Numbered from the stretch's first letter, positions 35,288 to 43,351 are shown. The stretch is 64,000 nucleotides of DNA from an uncultured Caulobacterales bacterium (GCA_964352785.1 CAYGTI010000017.1:4494-68493); one strand, 5' to 3'. Notes: generated by a model not told the origin, from the sequence alone. A program made the numbers and translations.

Positions 35288-35988
35288 AAAAACTTGCCGT
35301 TTTAGCGGTTTTTTGCTCCGCGCTTATGGGGCTTGTTTTGCATTTTCCGTTATCATGGATTGGCGCTTTGGTCCTGCCAAAAAACATATCTCCGAAGCCT
35401 GTTTTGTCCGGCACGGTCTGGCAAGGTAGCGTCAGCGGAATACCGCAAATCGGCGTGATCCATACATACGTCTCGGTGATAAATTTATTTACAGGACAGC
35501 CGCCTTTGTCATTTGAGTCGCGCGCGCCGTACTTGCAATTTTCCGGAACTGCGGGCATCAAAGGGTCCATAGCCGTCTCTTTGCAGGGCGATGTTCTGGG
35601 TATGACGTCTATTGATCGGCGGTTTTCAGGTCTACGGGGAACCTATTCGCTCACGCTCTCAGACATGATTTCTGGTAGTGGCTGCGAGGTGGCGTCCGGT
35701 ACATTCACAAGTGATATTTTGCAGCGTAACCGCGACGTGTGGAGGTGGCTGGGACCAGCCTTATCTGGGCCTGTAAGCTGTGAAGCAGGGGATGTGGTTC
35801 TTAATGTTAGCGGGCGTGATAATATGAATGATATTCAGGCAATTATTCGTATTGGGCCGTCTGGAACCTACCGGGCTGAGATTGATGTCACCACACAAGA
35901 CCCAAATATTGATACGGTATTGCCAATTTTTGGATTTCAAAAAAATGGCCCATCCTACAGATTATTGGAGGCGGGACGGTGGTATTAA
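35284..35988 (+). CDS. gspN: type II secretion system protein GspN
   Basis: 234 aa with an N-terminal anchor MKKLAVLAVFCSALMGLVL. It is the last canonical position of the operon. Confidence 0.7.
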   Translation: MKKLAVLAVFCSALMGLVLHFPLSWIGALVLPKNISPKPVLSGTVWQGSVSGIPQIGVIHTYVSVINLFTGQPPLSFESRAPYLQFSGTAGIKGSIAVSLQGDVLGMTSIDRRFSGLRGTYSLTLSDMISGSGCEVASGTFTSDILQRNRDVWRWLGPALSGPVSCEAGDVVLNVSGRDNMNDIQAIIRIGPSGTYRAEIDVTTQDPNIDTVLPIFGFQKNGPSYRLLEAGRWY

Positions 35989-36449
35989 GATGGCTATACA
36001 GCGCGCTATCTTGCGCTATATTTGCTGCGGGGTGTACGACCTTGCCAAGTATCCCTGCGTCTGTTGTCGCAGGGCCAGAGAGTGCTCTTACCCGTCTTTC
36101 GCCGATCACGTTGGGCGCGGGTGAATGCGGGCTTTTCGTTTGGACGGCCAGCGCGCAAAAGCGGTTTGTTTTGTTCAGTCAATCGCAAGAGGGAACGGGC
36201 GTATGGGTCAGTGAAAGCGGCGAGGAAAACCTAACGATAGATCAACAAGAGGGCACGTCCGCCCATAGTCAACGGCCAAAAATAGAGTTTAGAACGCCGC
36301 GTCAAGAACGGCTGGAACTGGACTTACGTCAAAGCCAAGCCATTACTGACGGGATGCGTTATAAGTCGGGAACGTTGACATTGACGTCTTTGGAGGGGTG
36401 GGAAAAGGTAACGCCCGTCGTCGGTTTATCGGCCTGTCAGGCCTTATAA
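35979..36449 (+). CDS. hypothetical lipoprotein, translationally overlapping gspN
   Basis: 156 aa with a GTG start 10 nt inside gspN and the lipobox IFAAGC. I recognise no family. Confidence 0.5.
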   Translation: MVLRWLYSALSCAIFAAGCTTLPSIPASVVAGPESALTRLSPITLGAGECGLFVWTASAQKRFVLFSQSQEGTGVWVSESGEENLTIDQQEGTSAHSQRPKIEFRTPRQERLELDLRQSQAITDGMRYKSGTLTLTSLEGWEKVTPVVGLSACQAL

Positions 36450-36537: not shown

Positions 36538-37041
36538 TTATGAGATTAAAGCCGCCGTCCAAACCATGAAAATACCCAGCGCAAGACATGGCCCAAAGGG
36601 AATGCGTCCTTCGTCGGCGAGTTTGCGAAACGACGGAAACATAAGCGCAGCCAGTCCCATACCGCTCGCAATTAAAACAATGAACGGCAGTCCGTACCAG
36701 CCGCACCATGCTCCGCCCGCAGCCAGCAGTTTGGCGTCGCCTCGTCCAAGGCCGTCAACGCCACGTAGCTTCTTGAATGCGATTTCAATCAGCACAAAAA
36801 CGCCGTAACCAATAGCTGCGCCTAGGAGACTGGCTTTTATGTTGCCGGTGAGCACCCATGATTGCAAAATACCCATAAGAATAAGTGGCAGTGTCAGATT
36901 GTTTGGCAGACGAAAGGTCTTTAAATCAATCCATGACAAGACCGCCAAGATTCCGAAAAGCACCGCTGTAAAAATATAGATCAAATCGATTATGTCCGGG
37001 GCTTGCGGCGTGGAAAAGACCAACCAAACAAAAGCGCGCAT
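36538..37041 (-). CDS. A24-family prepilin peptidase, short form without the N-terminal methyltransferase/zinc-finger domain
   Basis: This is the C-terminal 167 aa of track ORF 36538..37428. The first catalytic Asp context is LSWIDLKTFRLPN and the second is GLGRGDAKLLAAGGAW, across about 5 TM helices. The start is set at MRAFVWLVF (comp 37039..37041), because the upstream 129 codons are R/C/H-rich and overlap the TRIC gene. Confidence 0.7.
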   Translation of the reverse strand: MRAFVWLVFSTPQAPDIIDLIYIFTAVLFGILAVLSWIDLKTFRLPNNLTLPLILMGILQSWVLTGNIKASLLGAAIGYGVFVLIEIAFKKLRGVDGLGRGDAKLLAAGGAWCGWYGLPFIVLIASGMGLAALMFPSFRKLADEGRIPFGPCLALGIFMVWTAALIS

Positions 37042-37604
37042 CCACGGACAATAAAGGCACATGTTCCGCCAAGTGCCAACGCCGTGATTTCCGGCGTTCC
37101 GTAGCGCGCGGCAAGGCAATAGACGAGCCCGCCGATGAGCGCGGCGGTGGCGTAAATCTCTTTTTGCAAAATGAGCGGAATTTCGTTGCAAACAATATCC
37201 CGGATCATCCCCCCAGCAGCAGCCGTGACAATGCCCATGGCCACGCTGATCGTTATATTTTGTGTGAGTGCGTAAGTTTTTGAGGCACCCAAAACGCAAA
37301 AAAGAGCCATACCTACAGCATCTGCCCATTCCAGTACGGTGAGCCGTCTGCCGATGCGCGGCGGAAATGTAAATATAAGAATTGCGGCGCAAATGGCGAG
37401 CCAAATATAGACAGGAGCGCCGAGCCAAAAAACGGGCACATCGAGGATAAGGTCGCGCAAAGTGCCGCCGCCGATGGCTGGAAACATGGCTAGAACGATG
37501 TGCCCAAAAATATCCATATCATTGCGGTTAGCGGCCAGTGCGCCTGTCAACGCGAAGACGAAAACGCCTAAAAAGTCTAAATATGTAATGATTGAAAGAC
37601 CCAT
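36990..37604 (-). CDS. trimeric intracellular cation channel family protein (UPF0126/YadS-like)
   Basis: 204 aa with two UPF0126 repeats (FVFALTGALAA...GGGTLRD and MGIVTAAAGGMIRD) and seven hydrophobic helices. Confidence 0.75.
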   Translation of the reverse strand: MGLSIITYLDFLGVFVFALTGALAANRNDMDIFGHIVLAMFPAIGGGTLRDLILDVPVFWLGAPVYIWLAICAAILIFTFPPRIGRRLTVLEWADAVGMALFCVLGASKTYALTQNITISVAMGIVTAAAGGMIRDIVCNEIPLILQKEIYATAALIGGLVYCLAARYGTPEITALALGGTCAFIVRGCALLFGWSFPRRKPRT

Positions 37605-37609
37605 CTTAT

Positions 37610-38626
37610 TTAGAAGCGATAGCTGATTCGGTCAGCGGCCCGGCAAAATAGATCAAGTTCGTTCAGGCAAACGCGTTCCATATTCGTTACCAATTGTGGC
37701 AAACTGATATCCTGCCCGTCTTTTGTTTGAGACGCTTCTTCGATGTCCCGGACATATTGCTCGTACCGGGTTTGAGATTGTTCTTCGAGCAAGGCATTAT
37801 CCATAATGGCCTCAGTCGACCCAAGAATGAAAAGCGTGACAGCCGTAAAGTCGATCCAGGCTGTATCAAGACCTGTCCAAACCGGTTCTGCGATTTTTAC
37901 CCCTAAAGAGATAAAGGCGAACACTGCTGCGCCCAAATAAATCATATCCTGTGTTGAGTTGAAAATGCGCCGCCGTCCTGAAAAGGCCACAACTTCGCCA
38001 AGGGCAAAATTGCGTTGATAAGCTACCCTGAGTTCCATGTAGGCCTCGCGCGCCATTGTCGCGATCCCGGCATGAGCGGCTTTCTTAGGCAGCTTCATAG
38101 GCTCCATAACGGTGCCGGGTGAGAAGTTTTTTAAAACAGCAATTCCAGCATTCATTTCATTTTCTAATCTGGCGAGGTGTTTTTGCACGAAAGTTTGAGT
38201 CAGTGTCTCAAGGTGATCTGTATTTTTTGCAGACTGCGCTAGTTGAAACGCTTGAAATTTTAAACTCCGCAGACGCTCAGCGGCAAAACGGTTTAATATC
38301 CATTTTTGTTTTTGCTTGGTCCCAATCAAATACCACTGGAGCACAATCCCAATTCCGGCCATGGTCACAGCGGCGAACTTTAGAATGACATTATTGAGAA
38401 TACCTTTGAGTATCAAAGCCTCGGCGATAGTAAAAATAGCGCTCGCGGCCACCAAGAGGATCGCGATCTGACCTAGATAATGATACCGTTTTTTTGCTGC
38501 ATTTGCCTGCCGCTCATGACCTATGAAGACATCGTCAAGTATCGCTAAATGGATAAGCGGGGTGATGAGTTTGTAGTGTGACTGCGTGGTGTCAGTGGCA
38601 AACAAGTCACGGTTTGGCGTTTGCAT
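37610..38626 (-). CDS. four-TM protein with two SLATT-like (2TM) modules
   Basis: 338 aa. Module 1 has helix AKKRYHYLGQ, TM ~50-72, TM ~79-101, then KWILNRFAAERLRSLKFQAF. Module 2 has REAYMELRVAYQRNF, TM ~228-245, TM ~255-275, then RYEQYVRDIE. The AGAGG SD precedes the ATG. SLATT is assigned by pattern memory only. Confidence 0.5.
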   Translation of the reverse strand: MQTPNRDLFATDTTQSHYKLITPLIHLAILDDVFIGHERQANAAKKRYHYLGQIAILLVAASAIFTIAEALILKGILNNVILKFAAVTMAGIGIVLQWYLIGTKQKQKWILNRFAAERLRSLKFQAFQLAQSAKNTDHLETLTQTFVQKHLARLENEMNAGIAVLKNFSPGTVMEPMKLPKKAAHAGIATMAREAYMELRVAYQRNFALGEVVAFSGRRRIFNSTQDMIYLGAAVFAFISLGVKIAEPVWTGLDTAWIDFTAVTLFILGSTEAIMDNALLEEQSQTRYEQYVRDIEEASQTKDGQDISLPQLVTNMERVCLNELDLFCRAADRISYRF

Positions 38627-38751: not shown

Positions 38752-41139
38752 ATGCCTTGTTTGTCTAAGAACTTTCTTATTTTAGCTGTGTTTACAATCG
38801 CTTTGATGGAGACATCTGGCGCTCAAACAAACTCAGACTTTATCCCACCGCCTGAAAAACCTTTGGTGGAGGGCAAGGACATAAAGTCAAAGGATTATTT
38901 CCCGATAGACCAAAGACTAGTTGACAAAAGGGCGGAGGATACAAGGCGTTATTGTGAGCCTATAATAGCCGCTGGTCAAAGATGTACGCCGCCAGTCTCG
39001 TCTTTTCGATCTGTACCTGTTCCGCGTTACGCCGCACCTTTTCAGGTTCAGCTTGTGACAACGGCAAAGCTTGTCACGGATAAATATTTGACAGACACCT
39101 ATAAAGACCGCCCCATGTGGGAGCTGCGCCATGCCTGCGGCGGTGCTTTGATTGACCGCGAATGGGTCCTGACCGCCGCGCATTGTTTTATTGATAACGC
39201 AAAGCCGGAGCATTACGGGGTTAGGCTTGATGTAGATAATATCTCACAGTCGGCATCTGATACGTTCGAGATAAAAGATATAATCACGCCGGAAAATTTC
39301 AACCGCACAGATATAGAAAATGATATTGCTCTGGTCCGCATTGAGGCGGCGGATGCAAAGCTTATTATCCAAGACTATTCCCCCATTAGAAATGGAGCTA
39401 AGCGTGAAAACGCAGTTGTGAAAAGTTACGTCTTTAGGAATGGGCGCACGCTTGTCACGGTAGGGGCGGACCGCCAACTCAAGGCGTGGGATACAGAGAG
39501 CGGAAAGCTGCTTGCTCAAAGAGAAACTTTGAACGCCGAGATGGGCGAAGGTTTAATTGAAAGAAATGGGTCTTTATTTGGAGCTGATCAGCAGGGCATA
39601 TGGAGTTTTGATCTGGCTTCCGGTCGCGCGGGCGCAAAGCTGCAAACGGATAAGGCGTATGGCTGGGCGTTATCAGAGGATGGAAAATGGCTAATGACTT
39701 ACGCAGAGGGCCACGCTGCGCAGCTTTGGGACGTTAAAACGGGCACGAAGGCTGCAGCCCTCGATCATGGCAACGTTGTAGATATTATTGATTTTGTTGC
39801 TCGCGGCCGGGCCGTAACAGCCTCATATGAAGGTGATCTAAAATTATGGGATATTAATCGCCAAACCGTACTGGCATCTGTTTCAAACGTGAGAGGCGAC
39901 CCAGCTTATATGAGCTTTGATAAAGGGCGTAAGCTTTTAGTGACAACAGATAGTTCAATGACAATTATTCAGATGCGCGATGGCAAGATTTTAAAAACGC
40001 TCGATGCAGAAGGTTTAAATGATGCACGCCTTCCGCCAATGATTGTAGCTGACGAACAAGCACTCGTGACATGGCAATTTAATGAACCCGTTAAAATATG
40101 GGATTTAAAGCAAGGGGATCTGCGCCGCCACATTTCTGTTGGCCAAAATATTTCATCTTTAATTTTTGACCACAAAAGCGATCGGTTATTGGGGTGGGAT
40201 ATGTCTGGGCATATCGAAGTCTGGGATGTCAAAACAGGAAAAATCCTCTCCAAAAAATATCTCGAAGAGGCGAACTTCAATTTAAGCGTCTCGTTTTTTG
40301 ATCAGGGCCGCAAATTTATGACGAGCCTTGCGAGCGGTGTGACTCAAGTGTGGGAGGCTGAGAAGAGCGACAATCTCTATACCATTGATCATAGCCTTCC
40401 TATAGCCGGAGCGCGTCTATCGGAAAATGAGCGGTATATATTGAGCTGGAGTGAGCATGGAACGGCTGAGATATGGGACGCCAAAACCGGGCGGGCGATA
40501 AAACGTTTGTTTCACGGGGCCTCGGTTGAAGGCTTGTCTTTGTTTAATAAAGACCGCTCGCTACTCACATGGGGACGGGCAGGCAAAGCCAGGATATGGG
40601 ACATTAAATCAGGCCGAGAAACTGCCCGTGTGGTGCACCCCAGGCCTGATACCGATAGCATTCAAGACCGCTCATCACACCGCGATGCCAAGCCCTCACT
40701 CGTGAGCGTTGTCGACCTTGCGCGCGGCGAAGCTGACTTGTTGGCGGATGACGTACTTTTTACTTATGGCTGGGGTAAAACGCGACCTGTCGCTGGGTTT
40801 GAACCGTCATCGACATTGAGAATGGTTGGGCTGCAACGTTTGACCAATGCCGCATGCCTTGAAACGTCTGGCTGGGGCGACGATGTTTTAGACAGCAGTG
40901 TTTTTTGTGCCCATGATGCGCGCCGTAAAACCTGTTACGGGGATAGCGGCGGGCCCGTAATAGGCAATGATAGGGTCGTTGGCGTTGTCAGTTGGGGCTC
41001 CGGTACGTGCGGCGAAGACGGAAAACCAGGGGTGTACACCCGCGTGTCAGAGCATTTGGCTTGGATATATCGAGCGGTTTGCCCGAAATATCCAGATGCG
41101 AATAATCGTCCCGCATTTTGTCCCAGCCTTAACCCTTAG
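38752..41139 (+). CDS. secreted trypsin-fold (S1) serine protease with an internal ~10-repeat WD40-like insertion
   Basis: 795 aa. It has a signal peptide ending SGA|Q, His motif WVLTAAHC (H144) and Asp motif NDIALVRI (D191). Ten ~41-aa WD-like units lie between residues ~215 and 630. These are followed by FTYGWGKT, CYGDSGGPV (S732) and VVSWGSGTCG..KPGVYTRV. AGGGAG SD. Confidence 0.8.
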   Translation: MPCLSKNFLILAVFTIALMETSGAQTNSDFIPPPEKPLVEGKDIKSKDYFPIDQRLVDKRAEDTRRYCEPIIAAGQRCTPPVSSFRSVPVPRYAAPFQVQLVTTAKLVTDKYLTDTYKDRPMWELRHACGGALIDREWVLTAAHCFIDNAKPEHYGVRLDVDNISQSASDTFEIKDIITPENFNRTDIENDIALVRIEAADAKLIIQDYSPIRNGAKRENAVVKSYVFRNGRTLVTVGADRQLKAWDTESGKLLAQRETLNAEMGEGLIERNGSLFGADQQGIWSFDLASGRAGAKLQTDKAYGWALSEDGKWLMTYAEGHAAQLWDVKTGTKAAALDHGNVVDIIDFVARGRAVTASYEGDLKLWDINRQTVLASVSNVRGDPAYMSFDKGRKLLVTTDSSMTIIQMRDGKILKTLDAEGLNDARLPPMIVADEQALVTWQFNEPVKIWDLKQGDLRRHISVGQNISSLIFDHKSDRLLGWDMSGHIEVWDVKTGKILSKKYLEEANFNLSVSFFDQGRKFMTSLASGVTQVWEAEKSDNLYTIDHSLPIAGARLSENERYILSWSEHGTAEIWDAKTGRAIKRLFHGASVEGLSLFNKDRSLLTWGRAGKARIWDIKSGRETARVVHPRPDTDSIQDRSSHRDAKPSLVSVVDLARGEADLLADDVLFTYGWGKTRPVAGFEPSSTLRMVGLQRLTNAACLETSGWGDDVLDSSVFCAHDARRKTCYGDSGGPVIGNDRVVGVVSWGSGTCGEDGKPGVYTRVSEHLAWIYRAVCPKYPDANNRPAFCPSLNP

Positions 41140-41184: not shown

Positions 41185-41382
41185 TCACTGATTTTCGATA
41201 GGCCCGGTAAGTCCGCCGCCCGTTGGGCATTTGGGGTATCCCGGAGTTTTAGGCGTACAGGCTTGCTTCGTGGATTCGCTTGATGGCTTGTCCACTGCCT
41301 CGTCTGTCGTCTTTGTGTTGGTGTGCGCGCAACCTGACATTATTAAAAACAATGTCGTGCCTATAATACCGTATAATTTCAT
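41185..41382 (-). CDS. small lipoprotein (65 aa), downstream of the TIR gene
   Basis: Lipobox LIMSGC. The mature peptide of about 48 aa is Thr/Pro/Lys-rich with two further Cys (QACTPKTPGYPKCPTGGG). It starts 25 nt after the TIR-TPR stop on the same strand. Confidence 0.45.
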   Translation of the reverse strand: MKLYGIIGTTLFLIMSGCAHTNTKTTDEAVDKPSSESTKQACTPKTPGYPKCPTGGGLTGPIENQ

Positions 41383-41407: not shown

Positions 41408-43351
41408 CTAATCCGAAAACCCGAGCGCGGCAAGCATATCTGAAAACTCTGTCTTTGACCTCAGCGGATCAAGTGCCGGGTCGACCTTTGCAAGGATAAG
41501 GCCCGAGTCGTTTAATTTAATCGCTTTTTCCATCATTTTAACCGCCAAATCGACCTCTCCCCATTGAGACAAGATTTGAACTTGTTGATAAGCCCCCGCG
41601 TCGCCAAAAGTATCTATGAGTTGTTTTTGCGCCGCTTTTGCCTGATCAGTTCTCCCCAACTTGTTGAAGGCAATCGCGAGGCAGGGTAGGCGTTCCATCT
41701 GATTTTTTTCATCTTCGCAGACGTTAGTTGCTTCTTCAAAGCGGCCGAGCGCAATCAGTGCATTGCCGATCTGAGATTTAGCATTTGTATGTTTTGGAGA
41801 TAAATTCAACGCGTGCTGCGTGGCCTTGATTGACGCCTCATAGCGGCGTGAAAAGTATAAAATCGTCCCATCAGTTCTATGGATTGTTGGATTTAAAGGG
41901 TCGAGTGTTTTGGCGCGGTTAATTGAACTGATGGCTTCAGTTTGTTGTCCGGTAACCGCTTTGTAAGTCGCGTAGCGGGCCAAGATTGTTGCGCTTCCAA
42001 ATCCAAGTTCCCTAGATTTTTCATAAGGGACTTTAGCGCCCTTAATATCAAGCTGGGCGAATTTGACATAGGCGAGTGAGGATTGTGCTATGGCTGAATT
42101 CGGGCTTTGCCTAACGGCCAAATTCGCCGAGTTCAGAGCTGCTGCAAAGTACGAACTTACCGTCTCTTGGTCGGAACTGGTTGCGCCAAGCCAAAGAAGT
42201 AGTCTGGCTTTTGCGGCGTGTGCTCGGCTAAAACTGGGATCAAGGTTTACGGCTCTGTCAAGATGTTCGAGGGCTACGAGATTGGAGGTGCGGCTGATGT
42301 TTGATCTAAAAAGGTCAGTGCCTTTGAGGTATTCGGTAAAGGCTGCGGGGTTTTCAGTTTCTGCAGTTTCTGCCGCGATATTTGTTTGGCTCACTTTTTG
42401 AGTCAACACGCCTGTAATTGCTTCGGCAATTAGATTGTGGATTTTCAGGGTCTCGTTTTCTGTATGCTGAAACGTTTTGCCCCAAACGTTAAAACCTGTT
42501 TTGCCATTTATAAGCTCTGCTGTGACGCGCATATCTGCGCCTTCGCGGCTTACATTCCCATCCAAAATATGAGCGACGCCCAAGCGTTTTGCGATATCTT
42601 TTGCCGTTAATGATTGACTGGCCAGAGCTTCTGAAGAGGAGCGCGAGACGACTTGAAGCGCTTGATTGCGTGCAAGGCTTATGCGCAGTTCTGATGATAG
42701 CCCGGCTGAAAGGTAATCTTGCGCGCTATCACCGCTGGCGTTACGAAAAGGGAGTACGGCGACGCCGTTCTCAAGAAGATTTGCGCCCTTTGCAAAAAGC
42801 CCGCTCGTGATGGAGAGGCCGCCGCCAATAGCTACCACAGCGCTCGCGCCCGCCATCATCACATGTCTACGCGAGAGTACCGCTTTGGGTTTTGAGTGCA
42901 CGGCCCGTCGTTTTGGGACGTTTCCTCCGTGCATAACTGCCAGCATGCGTACTAACTCTTGGATGCTGGACGAGGTGTCATCGCCGTCCCATTTTTGGAT
43001 GTCGATAAGTTGAACTTGCCGAAATCCCAAAGGCGCGATTGTTCCGTCCAATGTTAGAGGAATGAGCCTCTCGCGTACCCGTCCGCTCGTGGCTTCATCA
43101 CGCACCCAATGAGACGATATGGAGGTCTTTGACCATAGCACGACAACGGCTTTGGCAGACTCGAGGGCCTCTTCGGTTGTTTCTAAAAAACTGGTGCCGC
43201 CTTCAAGCATGCCGTCCCACCACACGCGGTATCCGGCTGCTTCAATGGCGTCAATAATAGGAAGAGCTTGTGCTTGGTCGACTCGCGAATAGCTGAAAAA
43301 GACGGTCGTAAGTTCCGCGTCTTTATCGTCGTGTTCGTCTGATTGCGCCAT
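41408..43351 (-). CDS. TIR domain - TM - periplasmic TolB-N-like/TPR repeat protein
   Basis: 647 aa. The N-terminal TIR domain reads TVFFSYSRVDQ...YRVWWD...AKAVVVLWSKTSISSHWVRDEA, with the conserved Glu at residue 86. A TM helix spans ~164-187 (VMMAGASAVVAIGGGLSITSGLFA). Next comes VAVLPFRNASGDSAQDYLSAGLSSEL.., a motif seen in periplasmic modules of TPR-linked receptors. TPR-like helical repeats then run to the C-terminus. Confidence 0.8.
   Translation of the reverse strand: MAQSDEHDDKDAELTTVFFSYSRVDQAQALPIIDAIEAAGYRVWWDGMLEGGTSFLETTEEALESAKAVVVLWSKTSISSHWVRDEATSGRVRERLIPLTLDGTIAPLGFRQVQLIDIQKWDGDDTSSSIQELVRMLAVMHGGNVPKRRAVHSKPKAVLSRRHVMMAGASAVVAIGGGLSITSGLFAKGANLLENGVAVLPFRNASGDSAQDYLSAGLSSELRISLARNQALQVVSRSSSEALASQSLTAKDIAKRLGVAHILDGNVSREGADMRVTAELINGKTGFNVWGKTFQHTENETLKIHNLIAEAITGVLTQKVSQTNIAAETAETENPAAFTEYLKGTDLFRSNISRTSNLVALEHLDRAVNLDPSFSRAHAAKARLLLWLGATSSDQETVSSYFAAALNSANLAVRQSPNSAIAQSSLAYVKFAQLDIKGAKVPYEKSRELGFGSATILARYATYKAVTGQQTEAISSINRAKTLDPLNPTIHRTDGTILYFSRRYEASIKATQHALNLSPKHTNAKSQIGNALIALGRFEEATNVCEDEKNQMERLPCLAIAFNKLGRTDQAKAAQKQLIDTFGDAGAYQQVQILSQWGEVDLAVKMMEKAIKLNDSGLILAKVDPALDPLRSKTEFSDMLAALGFSD

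Follow-up and report, generated by a model that had tools for sequence, protein, structure and literature searches.

A TIR-domain receptor with one predicted membrane anchor and a TPR sensor, encoded in a conserved gene cassette of alphaproteobacteria

The bacterial TIR systems characterised so far (Thoeris, SPARTA, TIR-SAVED, retron-TIR and the AbTir-like proteins) read, to our knowledge, cytoplasmic cues, and we know of no characterised bacterial TIR NADase that acts other than in defence or as a toxin. The TIR NADases SARM1, AbTir, SPARTA and the plant TNLs are activated by oligomerisation, TIR-TIR assembly being needed; these proteins are soluble and respond to cytoplasmic cues, and none of them is known to combine a membrane anchor with a sensor outside the cytoplasm. 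The SLATT proteins act as effectors of the pore type. Receptors of the CadC/ToxR class have a cytoplasmic N-terminal output, which is a winged-helix DNA-binding domain, followed by one membrane segment and a C-terminal periplasmic sensor, and several of the ToxR type are under the control of proteolysis in the periplasm. In type VII Thoeris, a two-gene operon, the TIR protein ThsB makes cyclic ADP-ribose (cADPR) for the SLATT effector ThsH (bioRxiv 10.64898/2025.12.03.692087). We describe here a gene at 41408–43351 on the minus strand of a 64-kb stretch of DNA from an uncultured Caulobacterales bacterium (GCA_964352785.1; the whole stretch is referred to as the window), whose product is predicted to have the same order of parts as the CadC/ToxR receptors, with a TIR domain as its output. 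The receptor is inherited with genes for a lipoprotein, a protease and a pore-type protein, and therefore looks like an undescribed periplasm-reporting TIR system. The parts of the receptor and the genes of its cassette lie in the window as follows.

41408–43351, minus strand: receptor gene (TIR domain, single anchor, predicted periplasmic sensor); from the open reading frame (ORF), Pfam and NCBIfam matches, homologues and an AlphaFold model
42953–43303, minus strand: TIR domain, residues 17–133, predicted cytoplasmic; from the TIR_2 match, the alignment of E86, the invariance of W82 and E86, and Foldseek
42791–42871, minus strand: Arg161-Arg162 and a Gly/Ala-rich hydrophobic segment (residues 164–187), predicted anchor; from Kyte-Doolittle hydrophobicity, flank charges and conservation of the arginine pair
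42401–42775, minus strand: membrane-proximal alpha/beta subdomain, residues 193–317, FlgO/TolB_N-like, starting VAVLPFRNASGD; from AlphaFold strands and helices, typed relatives and the CadC match
41423–42349, minus strand: TPR solenoid with a TPR end-cap, residues 335–643, predicted periplasmic; from Pfam, NCBIfam, AlphaFold and fold matches
41185–41382, minus strand: small lipoprotein gene, 65 residues, lipobox LIMSG/C; from the ORF, the lipobox, recurrence in loci and tail statistics
38752–41139, plus strand: secreted S1 trypsin-fold protease with a WD40 insert, 795 residues; from Pfam Trypsin, the catalytic triad and recurrence in loci
37610–38626, minus strand: SLATT/DUF4231-like membrane protein, 338 residues; from sub-threshold Pfam matches, orthologue matches and hydrophobic helices

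The receptor ORF starts with ATG and encodes 647 residues, and a preliminary description of this DNA had placed it exactly and quoted only peptides that are present in it. The full-length AlphaFold model has a mean predicted local distance difference test (pLDDT) score of 82.7. The architecture is that of a populated family, not a singular fusion. More than 333 full-length homologues with the same architecture were found in a large protein collection, and TIR_2 is present in all 120 of those listed with details, which are 39–57% identical to the receptor and 629–709 residues long at a query coverage of at least 95%, save for one partial match of 551 residues (81% coverage). In a scan of one genome per species, relatives of the receptor are encoded in 310 of about 185,000 species genomes, mainly in Hyphomonadaceae-type and Sphingomonadales bacteria; named sources of homologues include Henriciella, Algimonas, Sphingopyxis and Sandarakinorhabdus. 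The overall interpretation of the gene in the preliminary description, a transmembrane receptor with a TIR output, is supported and its account of the architecture stands, although it overlooked the lipoprotein and SLATT partner genes, the anchor resembling a twin-arginine translocation (Tat) signal, and the family to which the receptor belongs.

The TIR domain itself is secure, the earlier call agreeing with a match to the Pfam profile TIR_2 (PF13676) over residues 17–133 at E=7.1e-22 and 78.6 bits, against a cut-off of 28. Glu86 had been proposed as the catalytic residue, and proper alignment bears this out. HMMER sets the receptor sequence HWVRDE against SWCLDE in two plant TIR NADases, 7xoz and RPP1 (5teb), and against DWTNYE in AbTir, and E86 falls on the catalytic glutamate and W82 on the conserved tryptophan of solved TIR NADases, in the WxxxE arrangement. 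The W82-x3-E86 motif lies at 43094–43108, with the Glu86 codon at 43094–43096. In a 26-sequence alignment, from which residue conservation was read, conservation along the receptor is highest in the TIR domain. Both W82 and E86 are invariant there, as are F18, S20-Y21-S22-R23, W44-W45-D46, V83, D85, G90 and the block P107-L108-G109-F110, among others. The glutamate is kept in all 120 homologues listed, preceded by Asp in 114 and by Ala in six. Since a fold search with the full-length model was dominated by generic TPR matches, the TIR domain was placed with a separate TIR-only AlphaFold model (pLDDT 82.8), to which Foldseek finds AbTir (7uxu), the SPARTA TIR-APAZ protein, SARM1 and plant TIRs closest; the TIR domains of TLR15 and MyD88 are also among the fold matches. 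The receptor thus shares both its closest TIR fold and the WxxxE motif with AbTir, SPARTA TIR-APAZ, SARM1 and the plant TNLs, and judged from the alignments the domain is likely to be catalytic and to cleave NAD+.

The absence of a signal peptide, also part of the earlier description, agrees with an acidic N-terminus (MAQSDEHDDKDAEL) and with the lack of any hydrophobic peak before residue 157. The sole Kyte-Doolittle peak of the receptor is the segment at residues 164–187, with a 19-residue value of 1.71. Seven Lys or Arg and no Asp or Glu are found among the 20 residues on its N-terminal side, and two Lys or Arg and one Asp or Glu among the 20 on its C-terminal side, so that the basic stretch and the positive-inside bias reported earlier are both present. 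Statistics from 113 family members show that the anchor is a family-wide property. Each of the 113 has one hydrophobic segment at the same position, the sequence itself not being conserved, with a 19-residue Kyte-Doolittle maximum of 1.73 in the median and 1.2 at the lowest (24% are below 1.6); an Arg-Arg pair precedes it in 111, and the net charge drops from +3 on the N-terminal flank to +1 on the C-terminal flank. Insertion energies were taken as a simple sum of Hessa-type values (Hessa et al. 2005), and for the most favourable 19-mer among the last ~450 residues, the predicted periplasmic part, the family median is +7.8 kcal/mol, against +2.7 for the segment in the window. Far more hydrophobic than any other stretch of the receptor, residues 164–187 are the sole candidate anchor, though a marginal one.

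The anchor also has a Tat-like pattern, in which LSRRHVMM is followed by AGASAVVAIGGGL at 42791–42880 (residues 158–187), 160 residues into the receptor. The form [STN]RRx-hydrophobic-hydrophobic is present in 78 of the 113 family members, and the h-region is weakly hydrophobic, with 26% Gly and 25% Ala. The receptor matches the motif of Tat substrates as a pattern only, and from this pattern the TPR sensor could be exported by Tat in a folded state through an internal signal-anchor, for which the internal Tat motif of the Rieske protein provides a precedent (PMC3471235). That residues 190–647 lie outside the cytoplasm is supported on three independent lines, namely the CadC fold, the FlgO/TolB_N family and the exported partners. 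The TIR domain would accordingly face the cytoplasm, where NAD+ is, with the FlgO/TolB_N-like domain and the TPR solenoid facing the periplasm, and we regard this architecture and topology as highly probable.

The TPR repeats noted previously in the C-terminal part are matched by a dozen Pfam TPR families (TPR_8, TPR_2, TPR_1 and others) over residues ~360–615 and by NCBIfam TPR_END_plus over residues 593–640 (E=5e-13), and the pLDDT of the solenoid is mostly above 90. The C-terminal part of the receptor model can be overlaid on the complete periplasmic sensor domain of E. coli CadC (3lya), with a TM-score to the target of 0.65 and a root-mean-square deviation of 4.4 Å over 322 columns. Residues 188–335 have 58,028 relatives among cluster representatives at E<=1e-3, of which 50 were typed by Pfam; FlgO (PF17680) is found in 26 of the 50, TolB_N (PF04052) in 15 and TPRs in 46. 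The description of this region as TolB-N-like has in its favour these typed relatives and the JGI label for receptor homologues ('TolB-like protein'), although neither a TolB_N nor a FlgO match to the window protein was found by Pfam at E<=0.1. Tandem arrays of the FlgO/TolB_N-like subdomain, in two to seven copies each followed by TPRs, occur in proteins of up to 2,837 residues (P0121–P0135), and in the search with residues 188–335 these outrank the TIR family itself. We also observed a sensor relative on the Polymorphobacter megasporae plasmid p29362-2 (4844–7362; L086), annotated 'tetratricopeptide repeat protein', which is 32% identical and corresponds to residues 197–643 only; as its start directly follows a gene for an IS5 transposase, it may be an insertion-truncated TIR receptor.

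The sensor module is one that carries other outputs. Among the 50 typed relatives there are 14 with Guanylate_cyc, five with Pkinase, five with BTAD and four with Trans_reg_C domains, the sensor part of the receptor weakly matches the NCBIfam models of cyclase-linked TIGR04510 and of the HilA/EilA regulators, and hundreds of plasmid records from Rhizobium and Sinorhizobium match the sensor part on its own. Homologous sensors thus bear cyclase, kinase, BTAD and Trans_reg_C outputs, and therefore both the earlier premise that the same periplasmic module is fused elsewhere to other outputs and the conclusion that TIR stands here in place of the usual output domain hold. Receptor cyclases, Ser/Thr kinases and BTAD/Trans_reg_C regulators such as TIGR04510 accordingly share with the receptor a homologous FlgO/TolB_N-like and TPR ectodomain and differ from it in their cytoplasmic output. 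CadC shares the fold of its whole periplasmic domain, but the receptor has a longer, canonical TPR solenoid and is accompanied by lipoprotein, protease and SLATT partners. No Trans_reg_C match to the receptor was found with Pfam, its N-terminal domain being TIR, and because it has no DNA-binding domain we consider that the receptor probably works like the ToxR/CadC class and is not a member of it.

The neighbours of the window gene were met again at two homologue loci, gene context was then taken from 80 loci, and the cassette counts use the 52 loci with full flanks. The lipoprotein, protease and SLATT genes are present together in 24 of these, lipoprotein and protease in 13, and no locus is without every partner. 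Flanking genes vary between genera while the cassette persists. Neither protease nor SLATT neighbours were seen at three loci of non-TIR sensor relatives (of the receptor cyclase, kinase and regulator class), unlike the TIR receptor cassette, although this control sample is small. The lipoprotein and the protease are of exported types, as would be expected of partners for a sensor in the periplasm, and we are confident, if not certain, that the cassette is functionally linked. A description of this architecture or cassette was not found in the searchable literature, and a prior mention in the SLATT-defining study of Burroughs et al. 2015 is possible. It is the cassette, with lipoprotein, protease and SLATT genes around a TIR receptor, that is new here; the parts are of known kinds, from TIR NADase systems and ToxR-type receptors.

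The lipoprotein gene is closest to the receptor and is probably co-transcribed with it. Its ORF starts 25 nt after the receptor stop codon, preceded by a Shine-Dalgarno-like GGGGAG, and it encodes a signal peptide and lipobox of the bacterial lipoprotein type, MKLYGIIGTTLFLIMSG followed by Cys, at which lipidation is predicted. A lipobox ORF on the same strand about 30 nt downstream of the receptor gene is present in 55 of the 71 loci with enough downstream sequence, and in 40 of the 52 with full flanks. The mature proteins have a median length of 61 residues and a net charge of about -6, and are rich in Ala, Glu, Gly, Asp, Thr and Pro; that in the window consists of an acidic low-complexity, probably disordered tether with a Cys-loop and the motif TGGGLTGPI at its end. 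The tail is conserved in character, Gly-rich and basic. In 60 of these proteins, compared with expectations from 500 shuffles, 42 have Lys or Arg among the last four residues (11.9 expected), 19 have a cluster of Gly (2.2 expected) and 11 contain G-x(0-2)-P-[IVL] (1.0 expected), and none of the 500 shuffles reaches any of these counts. Hyphomonadaceae-type lipoproteins contain one or two copies of a Cys-loop and Gly-rich motif, C-x-P-x4-6-P-K-C-x-T-G-G-G-x-x-G-P-I, and Sphingomonadales lipoproteins have no Cys and show ends such as GDPNGNPIKP, QGGGEGLKP or DQGST repeats. Asp at position +2 is rare, with one case in the 60, and under the sorting rule of E. coli this would favour the outer membrane as destination.

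A survey for neighbouring secreted proteases had been suggested in the preliminary description, and its outcome is strongly positive, with a trypsin-family gene adjoining the TIR gene in 46 of the 52 loci, usually convergent and right after the lipoprotein gene. The window protein has a signal peptide and matches Pfam Trypsin in two stretches (E=3.5e-40), and it has the features of an S1 peptidase, with a triad of His144 (TAAHC), Asp191 (NDIAL) and Ser732 (GDSGGP). A WD40 beta-propeller of ~400 residues, matched by WD40-propeller families over residues ~220–630, sits between Asp191 and Ser732. Among 83 ORFs of the partner protease family, TAAHC is found in 70 and GDSGGP in 68, and 70 pass a crude signal-peptide test; a large insert of this kind is present in 19, and the Sphingomonadales proteases are plain. 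The S1-pocket position at which trypsin has Asp189 is occupied in the window protease by Lys726, and by Lys in 36, Arg in four and Asp in 13 of 71 partner proteases. Classical trypsin specificity was considered and rejected as unlikely, because the base of the S1 pocket is mostly Lys or Arg (40 of 71). A preference for acidic residues is conceivable from this pocket residue and would fit the acidic lipoprotein tether, as a hint only. In some Novosphingobium loci (L032, L044 and others) two or three tandem plain trypsin-like paralogues lie downstream of the receptor.

SLATT-type neighbours were scored within 7 kb of the TIR gene and are present in 30 of the 52 loci (58%). The window protein has hydrophobic helices at residues 54–72, 80–98 and 228–246, the first two adjacent (residues 54–98), and its gene is divergent from the protease gene. 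This 338-residue family adjoins the TIR gene in 12 loci with identities of 38–66%, and 10 of 12 orthologues match DUF4231 and eight of 12 match SLATT_3 (E<0.01). In Sphingomonadales a different protein of 660 residues takes the SLATT place in 24 loci, its gene often being divergent within 30–230 nt or directly after the lipoprotein gene (L024, L045, L079), and all 22 members of that family examined match SLATT_1. The N-terminal ~300 residues of the 660-residue protein are Rossmann-like with conserved TGHR and WDG...VGGTxHT (L020:18180–20183 and 21 other loci), and weakly resemble nucleoside 2-deoxyribosyltransferase (PDB 7m5h, E=0.32; Nuc_deoxyrib_tr in two of 22). From this resemblance the domain could be a sensor for a nucleotide ligand, of SLOG type as one idea. 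A propeller-caspase of ~1,050 residues is encoded in eight loci (L047:6243–9374 and seven others). It begins with a signal peptide, has propeller repeats of the WD40/PD40 kind, and matches Peptidase_C14 (E=1.6e-7) and the NCBIfam model 'caspase, EACC1-associated type' (E=1e-12) with its C-terminal caspase domain; in some Sphingomonadales its gene follows downstream of the TIR receptor at a distance of about 3.3 kb.

These components suggest a mechanism that we put forward tentatively, the complete chain having at best an even chance of being right. At rest, the lipoprotein tail, the protease or both would engage the TPR sensor and hold receptors apart. A periplasmic event would alter this state, either through recognition of an invader or of damage by the propeller-protease, or through cleavage or loss of the lipoprotein tether, and the receptors would then cluster. 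The clustered TIR domains would build a composite active site and cleave NAD+, and a cADPR-type product may open the SLATT pore, or NAD+ may be depleted, or both. The affected cell would arrest growth or die. Such a system would thus be a ToxR/CadC-style single-anchor inner-membrane receptor with a TIR output, set in a conserved cassette.

Several observations weigh against this proposal. Like type VII Thoeris, the cassette has a TIR with the catalytic glutamate encoded near a SLATT-type membrane protein, and the opening of a SLATT pore by a TIR product is a plausible shared logic; but here the TIR is on a predicted membrane receptor with a 460-residue periplasmic sensor and with lipoprotein and protease partners, the SLATT gene is missing from 42% of the receptor loci, and the TIR is not close to ThsB models. 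ThsB is not among the top 50 folds for the TIR-only model, and the PADLOC TIR scores are 7e-8 for SPARTA-type Aga_TIR and 1e-6 for SAVED-TIR versus 0.013 for ThsB, so by profile score the receptor TIR is nearer to NAD+-depleting effector TIRs than to ThsB. SLATT is not an obligatory effector, because in 22 of the 52 loci with full flanks the 7 kb around the TIR gene contain no gene of this type. The window SLATT-like protein falls below threshold (DUF4231, E=1e-4 and 23.1 bits against a cut-off of 24.7; SLATT_3, E=1.4e-3), hhalign gives only 9% probability to a match between the 338- and 660-residue families, which we treat as separate, and neither the protease gene, which is convergent, nor the SLATT gene, divergent from it, is in the receptor operon of the window. 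The 22 loci without a SLATT-type gene, the position of the window SLATT gene outside the receptor operon, the best PADLOC matches to NAD+-depleting effectors rather than ThsB and the closest folds being AbTir, SPARTA and SARM1 all favour a model in which the receptor and its periplasmic module are the same and the TIR is itself the terminal effector, depleting NAD+ as in SPARTA, TIR-SAVED and SARM1, with SLATT optional or unrelated. We consider this model somewhat unlikely, since two unrelated-looking SLATT-type families have been recruited beside the receptor in different lineages, with genes directly after that of the lipoprotein (as in L024, L045 and L079) or divergent at the short distances given above, and recurrent recruitment and close positions argue for a functional link. 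The genomic setting offers further points against an immune role. In the window the cassette lies among housekeeping genes (dmpFG, ccoNOP and one of the glycine-transporter family), there is no recognisable defence island at the locus, and the receptor family is absent from the phage collection, while the sole full-length match among plasmid records is on a 1.8-Mb Novosphingobium chromid; from the last two findings we reject a mobile plasmid- or phage-borne system. By analogy with RcsF, which reports to IgaA, and LpoB, which reports to PBP1b, the cassette might instead be a resident, non-immune surveillance device in which the tethered lipoprotein reports the status of the outer membrane or cell wall and the TIR makes a low-level NAD-derived messenger. 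The chromosomal location of the family, the conserved flanks in Novosphingobium, the housekeeping flanks in the window and the suggested outer-membrane sorting of the lipoprotein are as this explanation would have them. It is nevertheless unlikely in our view, as the characterised bacterial TIR NADases act in defence or as toxins, the family is restricted to 310 of about 185,000 species genomes, and SLATT pores, propeller-caspases (in eight loci) and propeller-proteases are typical of conflict systems (PMC7159879).

Two further explanations question the receptor itself. Window anchor insertion is marginal by calculated energy, at about +2.7 kcal/mol (family median +1.9), and AlphaFold gives no helix at the anchor, with a pLDDT of about 30 over residues 150–190; together with the marginal Kyte-Doolittle value of 1.71, and the 24% of the family below 1.6, this could mean that the hydrophobic segment is not an anchor and that the whole protein is a cytoplasmic TIR-TPR protein, a kind that does exist (bioRxiv 10.1101/2023.05.26.542521). 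However, the segment is conserved in position and not in sequence with the arginine pair before it in 111 of 113 members, the sensor fold matches a known periplasmic domain in CadC, homologous modules stand behind anchors in cyclase, kinase and winged helix-turn-helix receptors, and the co-inherited partners are a lipoprotein and a protease with a signal peptide, so a wholly cytoplasmic protein is extremely unlikely. The matches to TLR15 and MyD88 might alternatively suggest that the TIR is a non-catalytic interaction adaptor, as in animal TLR/MyD88 signalling, and that the receptor acts by recruiting another protein. Non-catalytic TIRs generally lack the catalytic Glu, whereas here it is present in all 120 homologues listed and is invariant with W82 in the alignment, and the recurrent neighbours include neither a second TIR gene nor one for a death-like adaptor; we judge an adaptor role very unlikely.

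A comparison with Toll and Toll-like receptors (TLRs) and the Spaetzle-Easter cascade can be drawn as an analogy only. In both, a solenoid outside the cytoplasm is joined through a single membrane segment to a TIR domain inside it (here by prediction), and the gene of the receptor described here is linked to those of a trypsin-fold protease and of a small exported candidate ligand. They differ in that the Toll solenoid is made of leucine-rich repeats and that of the receptor of TPRs, in that the orientation is inverted here, with TIR at the N-terminus, and in that the catalytic glutamate is retained here. There is no evidence for common descent of the whole receptor with Toll, and the lipoprotein as receptor ligand is a conjecture drawn from this analogy. 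A functional Toll-like bacterial pathway, in which a dedicated trypsin-fold protease would act on a lipoprotein-tail ligand and nucleotide signals from the TIR would open SLATT pores, is doubtful. If it did operate, an invader or damage would be detected in the periplasm before anything enters the cytoplasm, no earlier bacterial TIR immune receptor would be known that senses beyond the cytoplasm, and the pathway would represent convergence with the Toll/Spaetzle logic or, conceivably, its distant root; the layout thus bears on how TIR-based immunity was assembled in evolution.

If the receptor mechanism we propose is true, TIR/NAD+ signalling extends to surveillance of the cell envelope, and the partners make this more than a domain swap. 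Sensing at the envelope could catch the earliest phage entry, periplasmic predators and envelope-targeting toxins. The cassette, which hundreds of alphaproteobacterial species from the environment possess, would offer a compact and tractable four-gene model for extracytoplasmic control of TIR assembly across a membrane and for the response of SLATT proteins to TIR products.

In several Novosphingobium loci, 2-oxoacid dehydrogenase E1/E2 genes lie downstream and the flanks are conserved within the genus. A promoter and terminator scan of 37.4–43.7 kb in the window gave counts near the shuffled expectation, and operons were not defined from it, and no tRNA or tmRNA genes were found in the 64-kb window (1–64000). 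Just beyond the cassette, at 35979–36449 on the plus strand and 36538–37604 on the minus strand, are a further small putative lipoprotein of 156 residues with the lipobox FAAGC and no family match, a gene of the glycine-transporter (TRIC-like) family and, overlapping, an ORF that is prepilin peptidase-like by eye; none of the three recurs beside the TIR gene in the other loci. The G+C content over 38–42 kb is 0.47–0.49, slightly below that of most of the window (about 0.50–0.53).

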